Both the position numbers and the translations under genes were made by a program. Of a stretch of 35,292 bases of DNA, positions 30,104 through 35,236 are shown piece by piece (positions within the stretch are counted from its first letter, which is position 1; each line of letters starts with the position of its first letter). The stretch is from Halodesulfurarchaeum sp. GTDB taxonomy: Archaea; Halobacteriota; Halobacteria; Halobacteriales; Halobacteriaceae. The notes below the pieces were generated by a model. That model did not search any database and was not told where the DNA came from. It worked only from the letters and a program-made list of their open reading frames with translations. The stretch lies in the NCBI GenBank assembly GCA_042216015.1, contig JBDGUI010000004.1, positions 1 to 35,292 on the forward strand. The letters are read 5' to 3'.

Positions 30104-30690
30104 GTTGTCGATTGCGTGCCGCTGGCGAGTGCGGCGGTGCCCGTGCGGGCGACCTCGTGTACGCCGAACTGTTCGAACGCCTCGATCGCAGCGTCGATCT
30201 CTGCCTCCGTGCCCGTCAACTGCACCGTGAGGATACCGTCATCGCCCTGGATCGCCTCTCCGTCGTACATCTCCGCGAGTGCGGAGACCCCGGCGGGATC
30301 GTCGCCGTGGACCTTGATGAGCGCGAGTTCGCGCTCGATTGCGCCCCTGACCTCCCGGACCGACCAGGCGTGAACCTCCTTTCTGAGCTGCCGTTTGGCC
30401 TGTTCGATGCCCGGCTCGTCCTCCTCGACCACGATGGTCATGCGGGCCTTGGACTCGTCGATGGTCGGGCCGACGGTCAAACTCTCGATGTTGAGCTGCC
30501 GCCGGGCGAAGAGCCCGGAGACGTTGGCCAGGACGCCGGGTTCGTGATCGACGAGTGCCGAGATCACGGCCCGACGCTCCTCGAGTTCGGCCTCCGTCTC
30601 CGGGTCGATGCGAATGCCCTGGGAATTCCGGCGGCCGGTGGGCATCTCCCGCTCCTCCGGAGCCGCCCCCTCCATTCGTTCCCCGGTCAT
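30100..30690 (-). CDS. ilvN: Acetolactate synthase small subunit
   Basis: ACT domain [46 protein letters not shown] 30690 overlaps the ilvB stop. Confidence 0.95.
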
Positions 30691-32465
30691 AGGTGATCGG
30701 CCCCCAGGGCGAACTGCGCGTTGTTCCCACCGCTTGGCACCATCGGGTAGACGTCCGCCACGGGATCGACGTGGAAGTCGATCACCGAGGGGCCATCGTA
30801 CGCCAGGGCCTCGTCGATCGCGTCCGGCACCTCGTCGTAGCCCATCGCCCGCAGGCCCTGGGCCCCGTAGGCCTCCGCCAGGGTGGCGAAGTCGGGCCCC
30901 CAGTCCCACTTGCTCTCGTAGCGCCGCTCGTCGTAGAAGGCGTCCTGCCACTGCCGGATCATCCCGACGTAGCTGTTGTTCAGAATGGCGACGGTGATGT
31001 CCAGTTCCTCTCGCACCGCCGGTGCGATGGCCTGACTGGTCATCAGGAAGGAGCCATCGCCCTCGAAGGCGATGACCTGCTTCTCGGGGGCGGCCAGCTT
31101 GGCGCCCACTGCGGCCGGGGCGCCATAGCCCATGGTCCCCAGTCCGTTCGAGGAGACCCACGTTCGCGGCTCGGTGTAGGTCCAGTACTGGGCGGCCCAC
31201 ATCTGGTGCTGACCGACGCCGGTGGTGACGATCGCGTCGTCGGCCGCGGCCTCGTTCATCGCCTCGACCACGAACTGCGGCTTGAGGGGCTGGTCCTGTG
31301 GCGTCTCATAGCCCATCGGGTACTCGCTCTTCCACTCCTGGGTGCGGTCGTGCCAGGCCGCCGCCGGCGGTTTGCCCGGCATGGCCTCGTGCAACTGCGT
31401 CAGGACGGCCCCGGCGTCCCCGACGAGCGGATAATCGGCGTGGATGTTCTTCGAGATCTCGGCGGGATCGATGTCGACGTGGATGACCTCGGCCTCGGGC
31501 GCGAAGGTCTCGATACCCCCGGTCAAGCGGTCGTCGAAGCGGGTTCCCACCCCCAGAAGCACGTCACAGTGGCTCAAGGCCATGTTGGCATAGCCCGTGC
31601 CGTGCATGCCACCCATCTCCATTGCGAGTTCGTGGTCCTCGGGGAACGATCCCAGCCCGGGCATGGTCGTGACGACCGGGATGTCGTACTCCATCGCGAA
31701 CGCCCGGAGTTCCTCGCTCGCCTCGCCCTTGATCACGCCCCCGCCGGAGAGGATCAGTGGCCGGTTGGCGTTCGCGAGTGCCGCTGCGGCCTCGGCCACT
31801 GTCTCGGGATCGGCTTCCGGATCCGGCACCTGATAGGACGCGGGCGTCGTCGGTTCGGACGGCTCGACGTCGGTTTCCCCCTGTGTCACGTTCTTGGGCA
31901 GGTCGACGAGTGTCGGGCCCTGTCGCCCCTCCCTGGCCAGCGCCATGGCGGTCCCGACGTCGTCGCCGACCGAGTCCGGGTCGGTCGCGAAGATGTTGGC
32001 CTTGGTGATGGGGGCGGTGATCCCCATCGTGTTCGTCTCCTGAAAGGCGTCGTTGCCGACCATGTCCTGGGCGACCTGCCCGGTGAGGGAGACGACCGGG
32101 TCCGAATCCAGGTTGGCGTCGGCGATGCCCGTGACGAGGTTCGTCGCGCCCGGGCCGGAGGTGGTGATCGTGACGCCGGGGTCGCCGGAGACGATACCGA
32201 AGGCGTCGGCCGCGTGGGAGGCGCCCTGTTCGTGGGCCATCGAGACGTGGTGGATGTCCGAGTCGGCGAGGGCGTCGTAGACGGGCATGATCGCCCCGCC
32301 CTGAACGCCGAAGGTGATCTCGACGTCGGCCTTCTCGAGAGCAGCGACGACCGAGCGCGCTCCCGTGGTCTGTTCGTCCGATTCTTCGGTCTCCTCGTTC
32401 GAGGTCAGGTCCTGGGACGCTGTCGGCGGGTCCGTCTCTTCGGGTGTTGGCTGGGGTTTGCTCAT
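30687..32465 (-). CDS. ilvB: Acetolactate synthase large subunit
   Basis: HEQGASHAAD, TSGPGATN, DAFQE, GMHG, RFDDR, GVGQHQMW, ThDP motif GDGSF...LNN. Confidence 0.98.
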   Translation of the reverse strand: MSKPQPTPEETDPPTASQDLTSNEETEESDEQTTGARSVVAALEKADVEITFGVQGGAIMPVYDALADSDIHHVSMAHEQGASHAADAFGIVSGDPGVTITTSGPGATNLVTGIADANLDSDPVVSLTGQVAQDMVGNDAFQETNTMGITAPITKANIFATDPDSVGDDVGTAMALAREGRQGPTLVDLPKNVTQGETDVEPSEPTTPASYQVPDPEADPETVAEAAAALANANRPLILSGGGVIKGEASEELRAFAMEYDIPVVTTMPGLGSFPEDHELAMEMGGMHGTGYANMALSHCDVLLGVGTRFDDRLTGGIETFAPEAEVIHVDIDPAEISKNIHADYPLVGDAGAVLTQLHEAMPGKPPAAAWHDRTQEWKSEYPMGYETPQDQPLKPQFVVEAMNEAAADDAIVTTGVGQHQMWAAQYWTYTEPRTWVSSNGLGTMGYGAPAAVGAKLAAPEKQVIAFEGDGSFLMTSQAIAPAVREELDITVAILNNSYVGMIRQWQDAFYDERRYESKWDWGPDFATLAEAYGAQGLRAMGYDEVPDAIDEALAYDGPSVIDFHVDPVADVYPMVPSGGNNAQFALGADHL

Positions 32466-32833
32466 TGATTTCCGTGGGCGTGGTCGGTCAGTTTCGAATC
32501 GATGCCGTCCGTCCCGTTCGGCTGGCGTCCGTGAGTGACGGTTCCGGTCCGCCGAAGGAGACGATCGAGAGAAGGTGTTACTGGGGGCCCGGGGCCCCTA
32601 CGATCGCACCGCTGGCCACACACGCCCGCGGACTGAATCGCCTGCACACGTGGGCCATTGTATCCCCATAGTGGGATACGATCCGATTTATGCGTTCCGG
32701 TCGTTGCGGACCTGGGTCCCGCGTTTGTCGCCGGGATCGTCGGCCCGTCCCGACGGTGGCTCATGTCACGACCCCCATCGAGCTGGAGTCCAGTCATGCA
32801 TCGACCTCCCGTCGAAACGAAGACCTGACTCAT
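32462..32833 (-). CDS. 123-aa ORF bridging leuA and ilvB
   Basis: ATGA overlaps at both ends; low-complexity, non-acidic; no recognisable family. Confidence 0.35.
   Translation of the reverse strand: MSQVFVSTGGRCMTGLQLDGGRDMSHRRDGPTIPATNAGPRSATTGTHKSDRIPLWGYNGPRVQAIQSAGVCGQRCDRRGPGPPVTPSLDRLLRRTGTVTHGRQPNGTDGIDSKLTDHAHGNQ
32578..32658 (-). CDS. Candidate 26-aa ilvB leader peptide MAHVCRRFSPRACVASGAIVGAPGPQ
   Basis: ATG 28-34 nt after CATAAAT; ends in Ile-Val codons followed by a GGGGCC-CCG-GGCCCC hairpin and TAA. Confidence 0.45.
   Translation of the reverse strand: MAHVCRRFSPRACVASGAIVGAPGPQ
32660..32692 (-). promoter_or_regulatory. Internal promoter with 7-6-7 palindromic operator upstream of ilvB
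   Basis: TATA-like CATAAAT (32692-32686); GTATCCC-N6-GGGATAC (32660-32679). Confidence 0.55.
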
Positions 32834-34050
32834 GCCCTGGCCTCCGTGGATTGGGAGGCTCGGTCGACCCCAACGGCCGCCGCAAATCGGTGGAGATCCT
32901 CGACCGTGATGGTGTGCTTCTCCGCAGCCCGGTTTTTGACCCGCTCGGTGATCTCTCGTACCTCCTCGTCGGTCGGGGCGTAGCCCGCCTCCTCGAGGTG
33001 CTCGCGAACCGCGTTCTTCCCGGTGTGCTTGCCGAGGACGATCGCCCGCTGGGCGCCGACCATCTCGGGGGTCATGATTCCCGGTTCGAAGGTGTCGGCG
33101 TTCTCGATCACACCGGCGGCGTGGATGCCACTCTCGTGGGAGAAGGCGTTCTCCCCGACCACCGGCTTGTTCGGCGGGATCGGCACGCCCGATTTCTCCT
33201 CGATGATCGCCGCGATCTCGGAGATGCGGGTCGTGTCGATGCCGGTGTCGGCGCCGTAGATCGACTCCGCGGCCATCACGACCTCCTCGTAGGCGGCGTT
33301 GCCGGCCCGCTCGCCGATGCCGTTGACCGAGACCTGTGCCTGATCGGCCCCGGCCTCGATGCCGGCGATGGCGTTCGCGGTCGCCATCCCGAAGTCGTCA
33401 TGCGTGTGTACGTCGATCCGGGCATCGGTGTGCTGGCCGACAAAGCCGATCAGGTCCGCGAAGCGGGAGGGACTGGCGACCCCGGTCGTATCGGGGATGT
33501 TCACCCAGTCCACGTCGACCTCGTCGACGGCCTCGAGGACCTCGGCCAGGTAGTCCCGGTCGGTTCGCGTGGCGTCCATCGGCGAGAACATGACCTCCGC
33601 CCCGCCGGATTTGGCCTGTTCGACGGCCGCGACCGAGCGCGCCTTCACCTCCTCGCGGTTGGAGTGCATGGAGTCCTCGATCTGGACGTCACTGGTGCTC
33701 GCGAAGACGTGGATCATGTCCACCCCCGAGTCGATGGCGGCCTGGACGTCGGATTCGACCACCCGGGCGAGCCCCGCGACGGTCGTCTCCGTGTTTCGGG
33801 TGATCTCCCGAATGGCGTCGAATTCGGCGTCGCTGTTCGCCGGGAACCCCGCCTCGATGACGTGGGTTCCCATCTCGTCCAGCACCGTGGCTATCTCTCG
33901 CTTGTCCGCCCTCGAAAAGGAGGTACGCGGGGTCTGTTCGCCGTCACGTAGGGTCGTATCGAAGATCCGGACCGACTCGAACTCGCTACGTGTAGCTAAC
34001 GTGCCCTGGAAGAACTCGATCGCTCGAGCTTGCGCCGAGCGACTCCTCAC
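32830..34050 (-). CDS. leuA: LeuA-family 2-isopropylmalate (or citramalate) synthase, short form lacking the C-terminal regulatory domain; true start unresolved
   Basis: IFDTTLRDGEQ, IEAGFP, PDTTG, HTHDDFGMATAN, GIGERAGNA, HESGIH, LGKHTG; heads the ilv/leu operon; no in-frame ATG before the catalytic motif. Confidence 0.9.
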   Translation of the reverse strand: MRSRSAQARAIEFFQGTLATRSEFESVRIFDTTLRDGEQTPRTSFSRADKREIATVLDEMGTHVIEAGFPANSDAEFDAIREITRNTETTVAGLARVVESDVQAAIDSGVDMIHVFASTSDVQIEDSMHSNREEVKARSVAAVEQAKSGGAEVMFSPMDATRTDRDYLAEVLEAVDEVDVDWVNIPDTTGVASPSRFADLIGFVGQHTDARIDVHTHDDFGMATANAIAGIEAGADQAQVSVNGIGERAGNAAYEEVVMAAESIYGADTGIDTTRISEIAAIIEEKSGVPIPPNKPVVGENAFSHESGIHAAGVIENADTFEPGIMTPEMVGAQRAIVLGKHTGKNAVREHLEEAGYAPTDEEVREITERVKNRAAEKHTITVEDLHRFAAAVGVDRASQSTEARA

Positions 34051-34060
34051 TTCGTGTCAT
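33986..34060 (-). CDS. 24-aa uORF overlapping the leuA 5' end (MTRSEESLGASSSDRVLPGHVSYT)
   Basis: ATG lies 25-31 nt after CTTATCA (34091-34085), which has a purine-rich BRE-like stretch upstream; leuA is in the +1 frame relative to it. Confidence 0.6.
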   Translation of the reverse strand: MTRSEESLGASSSDRVLPGHVSYT

Positions 34061-34180
34061 CAAGTACCTCGAACGCCTTGCCGTTGATAAGTCTTCCTTT
34101 CGCCCTCGCCCCACCGTTCAGGTACCGACTCCAGGGGGGCTTCGATAGGTTCTTTCTCGGAGCGGCCACCTGTTTGGCGT

Positions 34181-34690
34181 ATGACCTGGATCGATCTGTT
34201 GATCGGGAGCAGTCTCGGCCAGCGACTGGTCATCGTCGGGACGGTGGTGGTCTATGGGTGGTTAGCCCTCCGGCGGCCAACGATAGCGCGGGACAGTGTG
34301 ACGGCTGGGATCCAGCAATTCGCGCGCCTCTTCACTCTCATCCTCGCAGCGCTCTTCCTGGCGCAAGCCATTGGCGTCCTGCTCCCACGGGAGGCAATCG
34401 CCGCTGCAATCGGAACGACCGCAGGGACACGGGGCATCATCTTTGCGGGGATACTCGGAGGATTCATTCCCGGTGGTCCCTATGCCGTCTATCCCATCGT
34501 CCGAAGTCTCAGCAGCCAGGGGGCTCCACTCGCCGCCCTCATCACGATGCTCGTCGGCTATGGGGCCATCGGTCTCTCTCGAATTCCCTATGGACTGGTG
34601 TTTTTCGACGAGCGCACGGTCGGACTCCGTCTTCTCATCGGCGTCGGGGGGACAGTTCTCACCGCGCTCGTCGCGGTGGTGGTGTTCTGA
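34181..34690 (+). CDS. Permease half-module (DUF318/COG0701 ArsP-like)
   Basis: Hydrophobic; LLPREAIAAAIG...AGILGGFIPGGPYAVYPIV..L...GA. Confidence 0.75.
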   Translation: MTWIDLLIGSSLGQRLVIVGTVVVYGWLALRRPTIARDSVTAGIQQFARLFTLILAALFLAQAIGVLLPREAIAAAIGTTAGTRGIIFAGILGGFIPGGPYAVYPIVRSLSSQGAPLAALITMLVGYGAIGLSRIPYGLVFFDERTVGLRLLIGVGGTVLTALVAVVVF

Positions 34691-34693
34691 CGG

Positions 34694-35236
34694 ATGGCCC
34701 GGTACGAGTATCTCATCGGCGGGTCGTTGGGCGAGCGACTGATCATCGGGCTCACAGTCGGCGTGTATGCATACCTGTTGCTCACCGATCCCGGCAAAGC
34801 CATGAGGAGCTTGCGGGGAGGGATCGAGATGTTCATCCGGCTGTTTACGCTGATTCTCGCCGCGCTGCTCCTGGCCAGTGCGCTCGGTGCCTTGCTTCCC
34901 GAGGAACTCGTCGTCCGTCATCTGGGGGAAGAGAGCGGTCCGGGTCGGGTCGTTGCGGCAGGCCTGTTGGGCGGGATGCTCCTCGGTGGGCCGTTCGCAA
35001 CGTATCCGATCATGGAACGCGTCTACGAACAGGGAGCAGGCTATCCCTCGCTGTTGGCGATGTACGTGGGGTACGGGCTGATCAGTGTCGGTCGGGTCCC
35101 GTACGGTCTCGTCATCTTCTCCCCCTCCATCGTCGGGTTGCGACTGGCGTTCGCCGTCAGCGTGACGGTTCTCGCCTCCCTCGGCATCTATCTCGTCTCG
35201 GCGGTCCGCTCATCGAGTGACGGTGTTTCTTCGTAG
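34694..35236 (+). CDS. Paralogous permease half-module (DUF318/COG0701 ArsP-like)
   Basis: LLPEELVVRHLGEESG...AGLLGGMLLGGPFATYPIM....GAG; clearly similar to the preceding gene. Confidence 0.75.
   Translation: MARYEYLIGGSLGERLIIGLTVGVYAYLLLTDPGKAMRSLRGGIEMFIRLFTLILAALLLASALGALLPEELVVRHLGEESGPGRVVAAGLLGGMLLGGPFATYPIMERVYEQGAGYPSLLAMYVGYGLISVGRVPYGLVIFSPSIVGLRLAFAVSVTVLASLGIYLVSAVRSSSDGVSS

Follow-up and report, generated by a model that had tools for sequence, protein, structure and literature searches.

A putative programmed +1 ribosomal frameshift at the 5′ end of leuA in Halobacteria

Introduction

In this study, we have analysed the start of a leuA-type gene on a stretch of 35,292 nucleotides from a Halodesulfurarchaeum genome (assembly GCA_042216015.1, contig JBDGUI010000004.1), which is called the window here and whose numbering is used throughout. 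The gene lies on the minus strand and its reading frame (the LeuA frame) overlaps a short open reading frame (ORF) in +1. This short ORF opens at an ATG behind a promoter-like element, and we refer to its frame as the 0 frame; between the ATG and the body of leuA lie a predicted RNA hairpin and the heptamer GTT CTT C (Table 1).

The start of the Haloferax ortholog, HVO_1510 or leuA2, was listed as an open issue by Pfeiffer and Dyall-Smith in 2021, as its orthologs do not have a consistent start, and "ribosomal slippage, perhaps leucine-regulated" was already raised there for HVO_1510 (PMC8305020). The initial annotation of the window, made from the letters alone, had mentioned that start problems in haloarchaeal leuA were already on record, and this was right. 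The ortholog set and the puzzle are the same as ours; in the portion of that paper available to us, the DNA is aligned within Haloferax only, and the choice between an in-frame CTG and the out-of-frame ATG is left open (PMC8305020). Many orthologs are at present annotated as pseudogenes, as truncated genes or with arbitrary starts, and a frameshift at the 5′ end of leuA would settle this long-standing annotation problem. The regulation of amino-acid biosynthesis in archaea is poorly understood; leuA encodes the entry enzyme of leucine synthesis, and its start might reveal a translational feedback by leucine.

Results

Taken as the longest canonical ORF, the leuA-type gene runs from a GTG at 34050 to 32830 on the minus strand. 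The LeuA frame is intact across 406 codons, with 66–94% identity to 29 orthologs from relatives of the genome. The protein carries the DTTLRDGEQ motif and matches the Pfam models HMGL-like (3.5e-80, 269.6 bits) and HCS_D2 (1e-24, 87.1 bits), the HMGL-like catalytic barrel and the post-barrel subdomain both being present; no C-terminal leucine-binding regulatory domain, as in long-form LeuA, was found among the Pfam matches of the 406-residue protein. The top-scoring NCBIfam models are archaeal isopropylmalate, citramalate and homocitrate synthases, the best matches scoring under the curated cut-offs (PRK00915.1-2, 458 versus 517; LEU1_arch, 414 versus 485). The assignment as 2-isopropylmalate synthase is based on the annotation given to its ortholog HVO_1510 in PMC8305020, and the protein may instead have citramalate or homocitrate synthase activity.

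Most of the layout at the start of the gene had been read from the sequence by the initial annotation, namely a BRE/TATA-like element pointing to an out-of-frame ATG, a 24-residue ORF opened by this ATG with leuA in its +1 frame, and the lack of any leuA ATG before DTTLRDGEQ, a GTG 10 nt inside the short ORF being the only candidate. Each of these points is borne out on the minus strand. The TATA-like CTTATCA (34091–34085) begins about 31 nt 5′ of the ATG, and the spacing is kept in the orthologs, where an AT-rich, TTTATATA-like element begins 36–30 nt 5′ of the out-of-frame ATG in nearly all loci. In haloarchaeal promoters, a TATA element at such a distance would have transcription begin on the ATG or directly beside it, which fits a leaderless mRNA. 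The short ORF translates as MTRSEESLGASSSDRVLPGHVSYT* and reads GAT CGA GTT CTT CCA GGG CAC, its CTT lying at 34012–34010, whereas leuA reads the same bases as ATC GAG TTC TTC CAG GGC. Two tandem stops of the LeuA frame overlap the ATG and close that frame, so that no LeuA start is possible 5′ of the ATG in this genome.

Table 1. Features at the start of leuA and the gene that follows it, in window coordinates
Feature	Position	Strand	Remark
Promoter: BRE-like purine stretch GAAAGGAAGA and TATA-like CTTATCA	34085..34101	minus	From sequence
TGA TGA, two LeuA-frame stops overlapping the ATG (TGA 34062–34060, TGA 34059–34057)	34057..34062	minus	
Putative leaderless ATG, 0-frame start codon	34058..34060	minus	Open 0-frame ATG in 102/102 unique orthologs
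0-frame short ORF, 24 codons and TAG (33988–33986)	33986..34060	minus	Predicted product of unshifted ribosomes
GTG, sole canonical in-frame start candidate before DTTLRDGEQ	34048..34050	minus	10 nt past the A of the ATG
RNA hairpin, conserved (5′ arm 34043–34034, loop 34033–30, 3′ arm 34029–34019)	34019..34043	minus	Ends 4 nt before GTT
Arg codon CGA, last codon seen to be read in the 0 frame	34016..34018	minus	CGA/CGG/CGT across orthologs
GTT CTT C, putative shift heptamer (Val-Leu in the 0 frame, G-TTC-TTC in the LeuA frame)	34009..34015	minus	Without variation in the 98 unique loci of this type
Third-frame TAG, from rare Leu codon TTA (33999–33997) and G	33996..33998	minus	
LeuA reading frame after the putative shift, 2-isopropylmalate synthase type, HVO_1510/leuA2 ortholog set	32830..34014	minus	
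Acetolactate-synthase-type TPP enzyme (ilvB-like), 3′ of leuA	30687..32465	minus	Pfam TPP_enzyme_N, TPP_enzyme_M, TPP_enzyme_C

The in-frame GTG is not conserved outside the genus. Within it, the codon is GTG in loci L001, L002, L005 and L008 and CTG in L004, L006 and L007, that is, CTG in three of the seven full-length loci. In the ATG frame, the same alternation reads AGT/ACT (Ser/Thr) among the genus loci L002–L008. GTG and CTG are both near-cognate starts, and a minor route of LeuA-frame initiation may exist in this genus. Neither the change to CTG, nor the hairpin, nor the stops that close both wrong frames behind the heptamer had been pointed out by the initial annotation.

The ortholog set comprises about 110 loci. 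Relatives of this genome, of which 37 out of 41 gave a match, contributed 29, and named haloarchaeal genomes 80, the latter being the best 80 of 528 confirmed relatives among 600 candidate stretches. Removal of duplicates left 97 unique sequences with enough upstream DNA (3 others were too short) and, after later additions, 102; the counts for the heptamer and the stops refer to the 98 unique loci of the GTTCTTC type. A common layout is found in the orthologs, consisting of an AT-rich TATA element, about 33 nt, an ATG one base before the LeuA frame, a stretch that varies in sequence and ends in the hairpin, and CGR GTT CTT C NNN GGN ACN. An open 0-frame ATG lies 39–60 nt 5′ of the heptamer in every one of the 102 unique orthologs (97/97 in the first set), and the ATGs located 20–80 nt 5′ of the heptamer fall 142 times in the frame of the short ORF against 15 and 12 times in the other two, so that the out-of-frame arrangement is, on these counts, far beyond chance. 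Conversely, the transcripts of 69 of the 102 offer neither ATG nor GTG nor TTG in the LeuA frame; in the initial group of 30 loci, all three codons are missing after the last LeuA-frame stop from eight orthologs of full length (L004, L006, L007, L010, L015, L016, L029 and L030). The alignment of ortholog 5′ regions that the initial annotation had suggested thus yields a conserved heptamer, an out-of-frame ATG, also conserved, and no conserved in-frame start, and orthologs that share an in-frame start and lack the short ORF, which would have spoken against its proposal, were not what we found.

The arrangement extends over the class. Of 401 genomes sampled from it, 399 have the leuA gene, and an 18-nt pattern, CGRGTTCTTCNNNGGNWC, was detected in 145 out of 151 class genomes as against 5 for the reversed control, these being genome-wide matches that may in part lie outside leuA. 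Judged from these sequences, the out-of-frame start of leuA is a class-wide design and not an error.

The frame under selection could be followed on both sides of the heptamer. Directly after the ATG, 76 of the 102 orthologs have a Ser codon (TCC 28, TCT 22, TCA 14, TCG 12), 18 a Thr codon and 5 a Pro codon, and in the LeuA frame the same bases would give TGT-C, TGA or TGC. As all four TCN codons are used for Ser, the amino acid appears to be selected and the third positions free, which indicates that the ATG frame is translated. The same frame can be recognized immediately before the heptamer, where the Arg codon is mostly CGA, is CGG in several lineages (e.g., L012, L013, L020, L036–L038 and L109) and is CGT in divergent families; in the LeuA frame, these bases would encode Glu, Gly or Val. 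From 10 nt past the start of the heptamer the situation is reversed, with synonymous exchange in the LeuA frame (Gly GGC/GGT/GGG/GGA, Thr ACG/ACA/ACC/ACT) and changes of residue in the 0 frame. The Arg codon being synonymous in the 0 frame on the 5′ side and the Gly and Thr codons in the LeuA frame on the 3′ side, the switch is placed inside GTT CTT C NNN. LeuA-frame stops approach the heptamer from the 5′ side to within 20 nt in L109, 23 nt in L060 and L064, and 29 nt in L015.

The heptamer itself shows a constraint at the nucleotide level. In the 98 unique loci, the TTC-TTC of the LeuA frame is never TTT at either codon, even though TTT makes up 13% of the Phe codons in a crude set of 798 long ORFs of this genome, and the Phe of the IFDTT motif is TTT in L022, L062, L063 and L087. 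In the same crude set, CTT accounts for 6.7% of Leu codons and GTT for 8.4% of Val codons, in line with the remark of the initial annotation that codons ending in T are uncommon, and CTC is the commonest Leu codon (62%). The initial annotation had proposed a +1 shift at GTT-CTT-C, and the invariance of the heptamer and the localization of the switch back this site. The tRNA genes detected in the genome include Leu-GAG, Val-GAC and Phe-GAA; by wobble rules, tRNA Leu-GAG decodes both CUU and CUC.

Behind the heptamer, both wrong frames are closed soon. A 0-frame stop is found 18–39 nt 3′ of the heptamer in 98 of 98 unique orthologs, whereas, among 2484 equivalent start points at other places in these genes, just 10.2% have a stop of this frame so near, the median distance being 450 nt. 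In the third frame, a stop is located at +17 in 76 of the 98 orthologs and no further than 24 nt away in 80%, as compared with a background of 16%. As in the window, this stop usually arises from a Leu codon TTA and the G behind it; the codon is that for the Leu of the conserved Q-G-T-L, which is TTA in 61 of 98 orthologs, although TTA represents only 0.5% of the Leu codons in the crude gene set of this genome. Ribosomes outside the LeuA frame would thus be discarded quickly, and as far as the sequences tell, such paired escape stops make sense only if ribosomes arrive in the 0 frame.

Between the ATG and the Arg codon, the transcript is predicted to fold into a hairpin of −16.3 kcal/mol in the window, and 82 of 82 distinct orthologous segments of 34 nt fold at −10 to −22.6 kcal/mol. 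The mean minimum free energy (MFE) of the 30 nt 5′ of the heptamer is −14.6 kcal/mol, against −7.5 for coding windows of the same genes and −8.2 for shuffles, about 2% of either control set reaching the observed mean. Stem sequences vary widely by genus (CCCGG/CCGGG, CTCTGAC/GTCAGGG, CGTCGG/CCGGCG and CGCTCG/CGAGCG). Pairs were counted by script for each register class, the largest class holding 42 of 89 sequences; in it, six core pairs form in 42/42 and two further pairs in 41/42 and 40/42, with compensatory swaps at four of the pairs (CG 30/GC 12; CG 34/GC 8; TA 24/CG 16/GC 2; AT 28/GC 11/CG 2). Neither reading frame is conserved through the stem, which points to a constraint on RNA pairing. 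In the orthologs, the hairpin ends 1–9 nt before the GTT, and its core stem about 6–7 nt before it. No Rfam covariance model matched the window between 33700 and 34400 or ten orthologous loci at E up to 1.

Natural variants of the motif have been found among the six of the 151 genomes that lack the 18-nt pattern, all of which were examined: three belong to genus g44, one is G080 and two belong to family f12. G080 retains GTTCTTC and differs only further 3′. In genus g44, all four sampled genomes (the fourth being G137) read CGA GTT CTC CCA at leuA, with the heptamer GTTCTCC; the change from CTT to CTC is silent in the 0 frame and turns Phe into Ser in the LeuA frame, and by breaking the symmetry between Leu and Phe-Phe it favours the 0 frame as the one that is read. 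Family f12 (2 genomes) forms, together with f11 (3 genomes), a divergent clade of about 60% identity with a long-form enzyme (L113–L117). Its site is TCG TTT TTT GGG (CGT-TTT-TTG-G, heptamer TTTTTTG), read Arg-Phe-Leu-Gly in the 0 frame and Val-Phe-Trp in the LeuA frame, and a TATA box and a leaderless ATG-TCC or ATG-AGT start lie 5′ of it; the hairpin ends 13–20 nt before the site and is followed by an AGGGG-type purine run. Common to the three motif types are an Arg codon, an xUU codon with a pyrimidine behind it, and Leu (CUU, CUC or UUG) in the 0 frame.

Some further features of this clade were noted. The shift motif of L113–L117 consists of six consecutive T. These loci have 502–506 codons between the catalytic Asp and the stop as compared with 376 here, being about 100 residues longer. 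The three f11 genomes have an in-frame GTG-ATG within the hairpin loop, so that a conventional LeuA start is possible in them.

Discussion

The anatomy of the site, its conservation, the change of the frame under selection across the heptamer and the fact that most orthologs have no other start lead us to propose that LeuA of this archaeon, and of Halobacteria generally, is probably made through programmed frameshifting of the ribosome, net +1, after initiation at a leaderless, out-of-frame ATG. Transcription would begin at or next to ATG 34060 and give a leaderless mRNA; ribosomes would initiate at the ATG and read 15 codons in the 0 frame, through the hairpin-forming stretch, to CGA-GUU-CUU-C, where a fraction of them would move one base forward into the LeuA frame. 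Those that do not shift would go on for a few codons, end at the TAG at 33988–33986 and release the 24-residue peptide. In Haloferax, the tryptic peptide 43–61 of HVO_1510 has never been detected despite high coverage (PMC8305020). This peptide spans Glu45-Phe46 and would hold the trans-frame junction, being then absent from a standard database.

As regards the slipping tRNA, we favour a peptidyl-tRNA in the P site on xUU-Y, i.e., tRNA-Val(GAC) on GUU-C here and tRNA-Phe on UUU-U in the f11/f12 variant, which would re-pair with UUY one base further downstream, the A site meanwhile holding the undecoded Leu codon (CUU, CUC or UUG), because this is the only scheme with comparable re-pairing in the three motif types. 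A slip of tRNA-Leu in the P site would be good for CUU to UUC and poor for CUC to UCC and UUG to UGG, and tRNA-Leu may also slip by −2 onto the first UUC; the genome carries the tRNA genes that these models require. The hairpin, refolding 4–7 nt behind the site as it leaves the ribosome, would push the ribosome in the +1 direction. Hairpins that refold just 5′ of a shift site have been reported to stimulate frameshifting in the +1 direction and to attenuate that in the −1 direction (PMC6321510, PMC3639245), including at the CUUUGA site of prfB in a bacterial system (PMC6321510), and by analogy with these systems we infer a role as a cis stimulator for the leuA hairpin, which adjoins the shift site.

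Several observations weigh against this proposal or parts of it. Re-pairing of tRNA-Val(GAC) on UUC has a mismatch at the first position, and the alternative slip of tRNA-Leu re-pairs poorly in the CTC and TTG variants. The conservation of the 0-frame Leu is partly forced by the F-[F/W] (Phe-Phe or Phe-Trp) of the LeuA frame, and since g44 uses CUC, the commonest Leu codon here, rarity of the codon is not essential; CUC could become slow to decode only under starvation. RNAalifold, run on an ungapped alignment of 89 sequences, gave a weak consensus of 4 pairs (−0.07 kcal/mol), because hairpin registers differ by 1–6 nt. The orthologs are phylogenetically related, so that the counts overstate the number of independent events. 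In Haloferax, the transcription start has been mapped 2–4 nt 3′ of the ATG, which, if exact, would leave the ATG off the mRNA, although the authors stress the positional uncertainty (PMC8305020). The RNA-library contigs considered below may come from contaminating DNA, and Logan contigs drop rare variants. Finally, the in-frame GTG lies 10 nt into the transcript, and 33 of the 102 orthologs have some canonical in-frame start.

This last point leads to the most serious alternative, in which LeuA is initiated in the ordinary way, behind a very short leader, at a codon of its own frame other than ATG (GTG 34050 in the window; CTG, GTG or other near-cognates elsewhere) and the ATG ORF is a competing or gating regulatory upstream ORF. 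The GTG opens the longest canonical ORF, the seven full-length loci of the genus all have GTG or CTG at this position, the canonical starts of other orthologs are often a GTG inside the hairpin at −20, f11 has its GTG-ATG in the hairpin loop, and an in-frame CTG is conserved within Haloferax according to Pfeiffer and Dyall-Smith (PMC8305020). Such a CTG start is not general, however, because in the genus of the window two stops sit immediately 5′ of the candidate position. The positions of candidate in-frame starts also differ from genus to genus. Moreover, the orthologs without a canonical in-frame start make up about two thirds of the set, and L016, L029, L030 and L109 have no NTG of any kind between the last LeuA-frame stop and the heptamer, while the LeuA-frame stops of L109, L060, L064 and L015 lie as little as 20–29 nt 5′ of the heptamer. 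Ordinary initiation would also leave unexplained why the Arg codon before the heptamer is synonymous in the 0 frame and not in the LeuA frame, why g44 accepts a CTC that breaks a LeuA-frame Phe, and why the wobble bases of TTC-TTC are invariant. We consider it unlikely, although this genome, taken by itself, may start LeuA in this way. The "uORF switch" that the initial annotation offered next to the frameshift would lack a conserved LeuA-frame start as its target.

A correction of the frame at the RNA level, through a small archaeal intron at the hairpin, a base edit or slippage of RNA polymerase, seems far less probable still. The conserved hairpin does lie between the ATG and the LeuA-frame region, and the run of six T in f11/f12 is the kind of sequence on which a polymerase may slip; yet GTTCTTC is no homopolymer, the Arg codon that follows the hairpin is a 0-frame codon and shows the frame to be still 0 there, and the bulge-helix-bulge of archaeal introns (two 3-nt bulges and a 4-bp helix) is missing, MFE folds of 82 segments giving a plain stem with a bulge of at most 1 nt. 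A search of sequencing runs returned 17 runs, each with under half of the sampled words, and contigs of relatives from four of them cover parts of 33851–34102. Those from two RNA libraries (X4 and X9) and from two probable ones are collinear with the window through 33954/33999–34102, with no gap or joint, which is weak evidence against processing; these contigs carry no information on transcription start, strand or expression, and the missing cover 5′ of 34102 is no finding. That the locus is a pseudogene or an assembly error of a metagenome-type genome can hardly be entertained: the genome is a draft (51 contigs, 86.6% complete) and some orthologs are annotated as disrupted (PMC8305020), but the out-of-frame layout recurs in every ortholog examined, including the complete genomes of cultured species, and the LeuA frame is intact in a gene kept almost throughout the class.

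Apart from their bearing on RNA processing, the contigs from the four public runs match 33954/33999–34102 closely and then diverge, 5′ of 34102, into one shared unrelated sequence. Close relatives, to judge from these contigs, share the block from promoter to heptamer and differ in the upstream neighbour.

Other mechanisms have been considered and rejected. A leader-peptide transcription attenuator does not fit a single Leu codon, a single hairpin and zero terminator-like sites between 33800 and 34400; a scan for sigma-70 promoters and intrinsic terminators found nothing, being ill-suited to archaea. Termination and reinitiation after the 0-frame stop would need a start codon between this stop and the catalytic motif, where none is present, and a start at a downstream Met would remove DTTLRDGEQ. 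An SD-like (Shine-Dalgarno-like) run of G as a universal stimulator is absent in the genus of the window, and no matched take-off and landing codons for translational bypass were seen.

Whether the putative frameshift senses leucine is a separate question. Scarce charged tRNA-Leu would slow the filling of the A site, increase shifting and give more LeuA, i.e., a translational feedback by leucine; granted a frameshift, the chances of such a dependence appear to us to be evenly balanced. The larger picture, that of an ancient, class-wide, amino-acid-sensing recoding switch in which LeuA is made only when the ribosome stalls, its A site empty, at a single Leu codon and the hairpin pushes it into +1, is put forward tentatively, as we hold it to be somewhat improbable as a whole. 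In such a switch, charged tRNA-Leu may directly set the output of LeuA, without any protein or riboswitch regulator. Slow decoding in the A site is known to promote +1 shifts at hungry codons, at the CUU-AGG-C of Ty1, in Ty3 and in antizyme, the last of which illustrates that a +1 frameshift can serve as a metabolite sensor. Unlike these systems, leuA does not have a strictly conserved rare-tRNA codon in the A site, since the CUC variant exists. To our knowledge, amino-acid sensing by a programmed, conserved frameshift site has been established in no organism.

A close parallel is the autoregulatory +1 frameshift of prfB, which encodes bacterial release factor 2, at CUU-UGA-C. Both prfB and leuA have a short 5′ ORF with the main protein in the +1 frame (PMC6321510), a U-rich slip codon ending in UU in a pyrimidine-rich context, a slow event in the A site as the sensor (proposed for leuA), and a stimulator a few nucleotides upstream, which is an SD-like duplex in prfB and an mRNA hairpin in leuA; in both, the product or the end-product of the pathway would feed back on shifting. 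The differences lie in the A-site codon, a sense Leu codon instead of a stop, in the lack of an SD-like run of G in the genus of the window, in the leaderless mRNA and the archaeal host, and in the signal, which would be an amino acid instead of a release factor. The bacterial leu/ilv leader (leuL) resembles leuA in having a short, Val- and Leu-containing leader peptide before branched-chain genes, with ribosome speed setting expression, as it would in leuA. In leuA, however, there is a single Leu codon and no run of them, and no terminator/antiterminator pair; its leader overlaps the structural gene out of frame, so that the output would be a change of reading frame, whereas that of leuL is transcription read-through.

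Within archaea, fucA1 of Sulfolobus was named in 2021 as the one cellular gene whose frameshift had been determined unequivocally (PMC8037382, PMC8211752), and no +1 frameshift in such a gene is listed in the portion of the 2021 review of archaeal recoding available to us (PMC8211752). The fucA1 gene of Sulfolobus solfataricus shares with leuA its nature as a cellular archaeal gene with programmed frameshifting (putative in leuA), but its shift is −1, at an A-AAA-AAT type site, and is found in one crenarchaeal lineage, whereas that of leuA would be net +1, at the extreme 5′ end of the gene and class-wide. The shift site, the hairpin, the off-frame stops, the class-wide extent and the motif variants were not found described in the accessible part of PMC8305020 or in the rest of the literature searched, nor did that search return any experimental follow-up of HVO_1510 or work on frameshifting in leuA or in haloarchaea. 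The main text of Antonov et al. 2013 (PMC3711429), as far as available, contains neither "isopropylmalate" nor "leuA", and its supplements could list such a cluster.

If our proposal is correct, leuA would be the first cellular gene of an archaeon with a programmed +1 frameshift and, should the leucine dependence hold as well, its heptamer the first natural frameshift site in any domain to be dedicated to amino-acid sensing. It would also offer a compact and genetically tractable model, in Haloferax and Halobacterium, for +1 frameshifting on archaeal ribosomes. The comparative anatomy described here, with the site, the hairpin, the escape stops and three variants of the motif, gives the published speculation a specific and testable form.

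Gene neighbourhood

The ilvB-like gene that lies 3′ of leuA provides, by its sequence, a context of branched-chain amino-acid synthesis. A gap of 364 nt (32466–32829, minus strand) separates the leuA stop from the ilvB-like ATG, which is long for an operon junction. The single ORF in this gap (32462–32833, 123 residues) does not have a Pfam match, and the gap might contain a second promoter, a leader or an RNA element.

Divergently from leuA, two adjacent and similar half-size membrane proteins of 169 and 180 residues are encoded on the plus strand (34181–34690 and 34694–35236). Both match the first half of the ArsP_1 "predicted permease" model, with 28.3 and 31.3 bits against a cut-off of 32.3, and the pair may constitute a split or heterodimeric permease.

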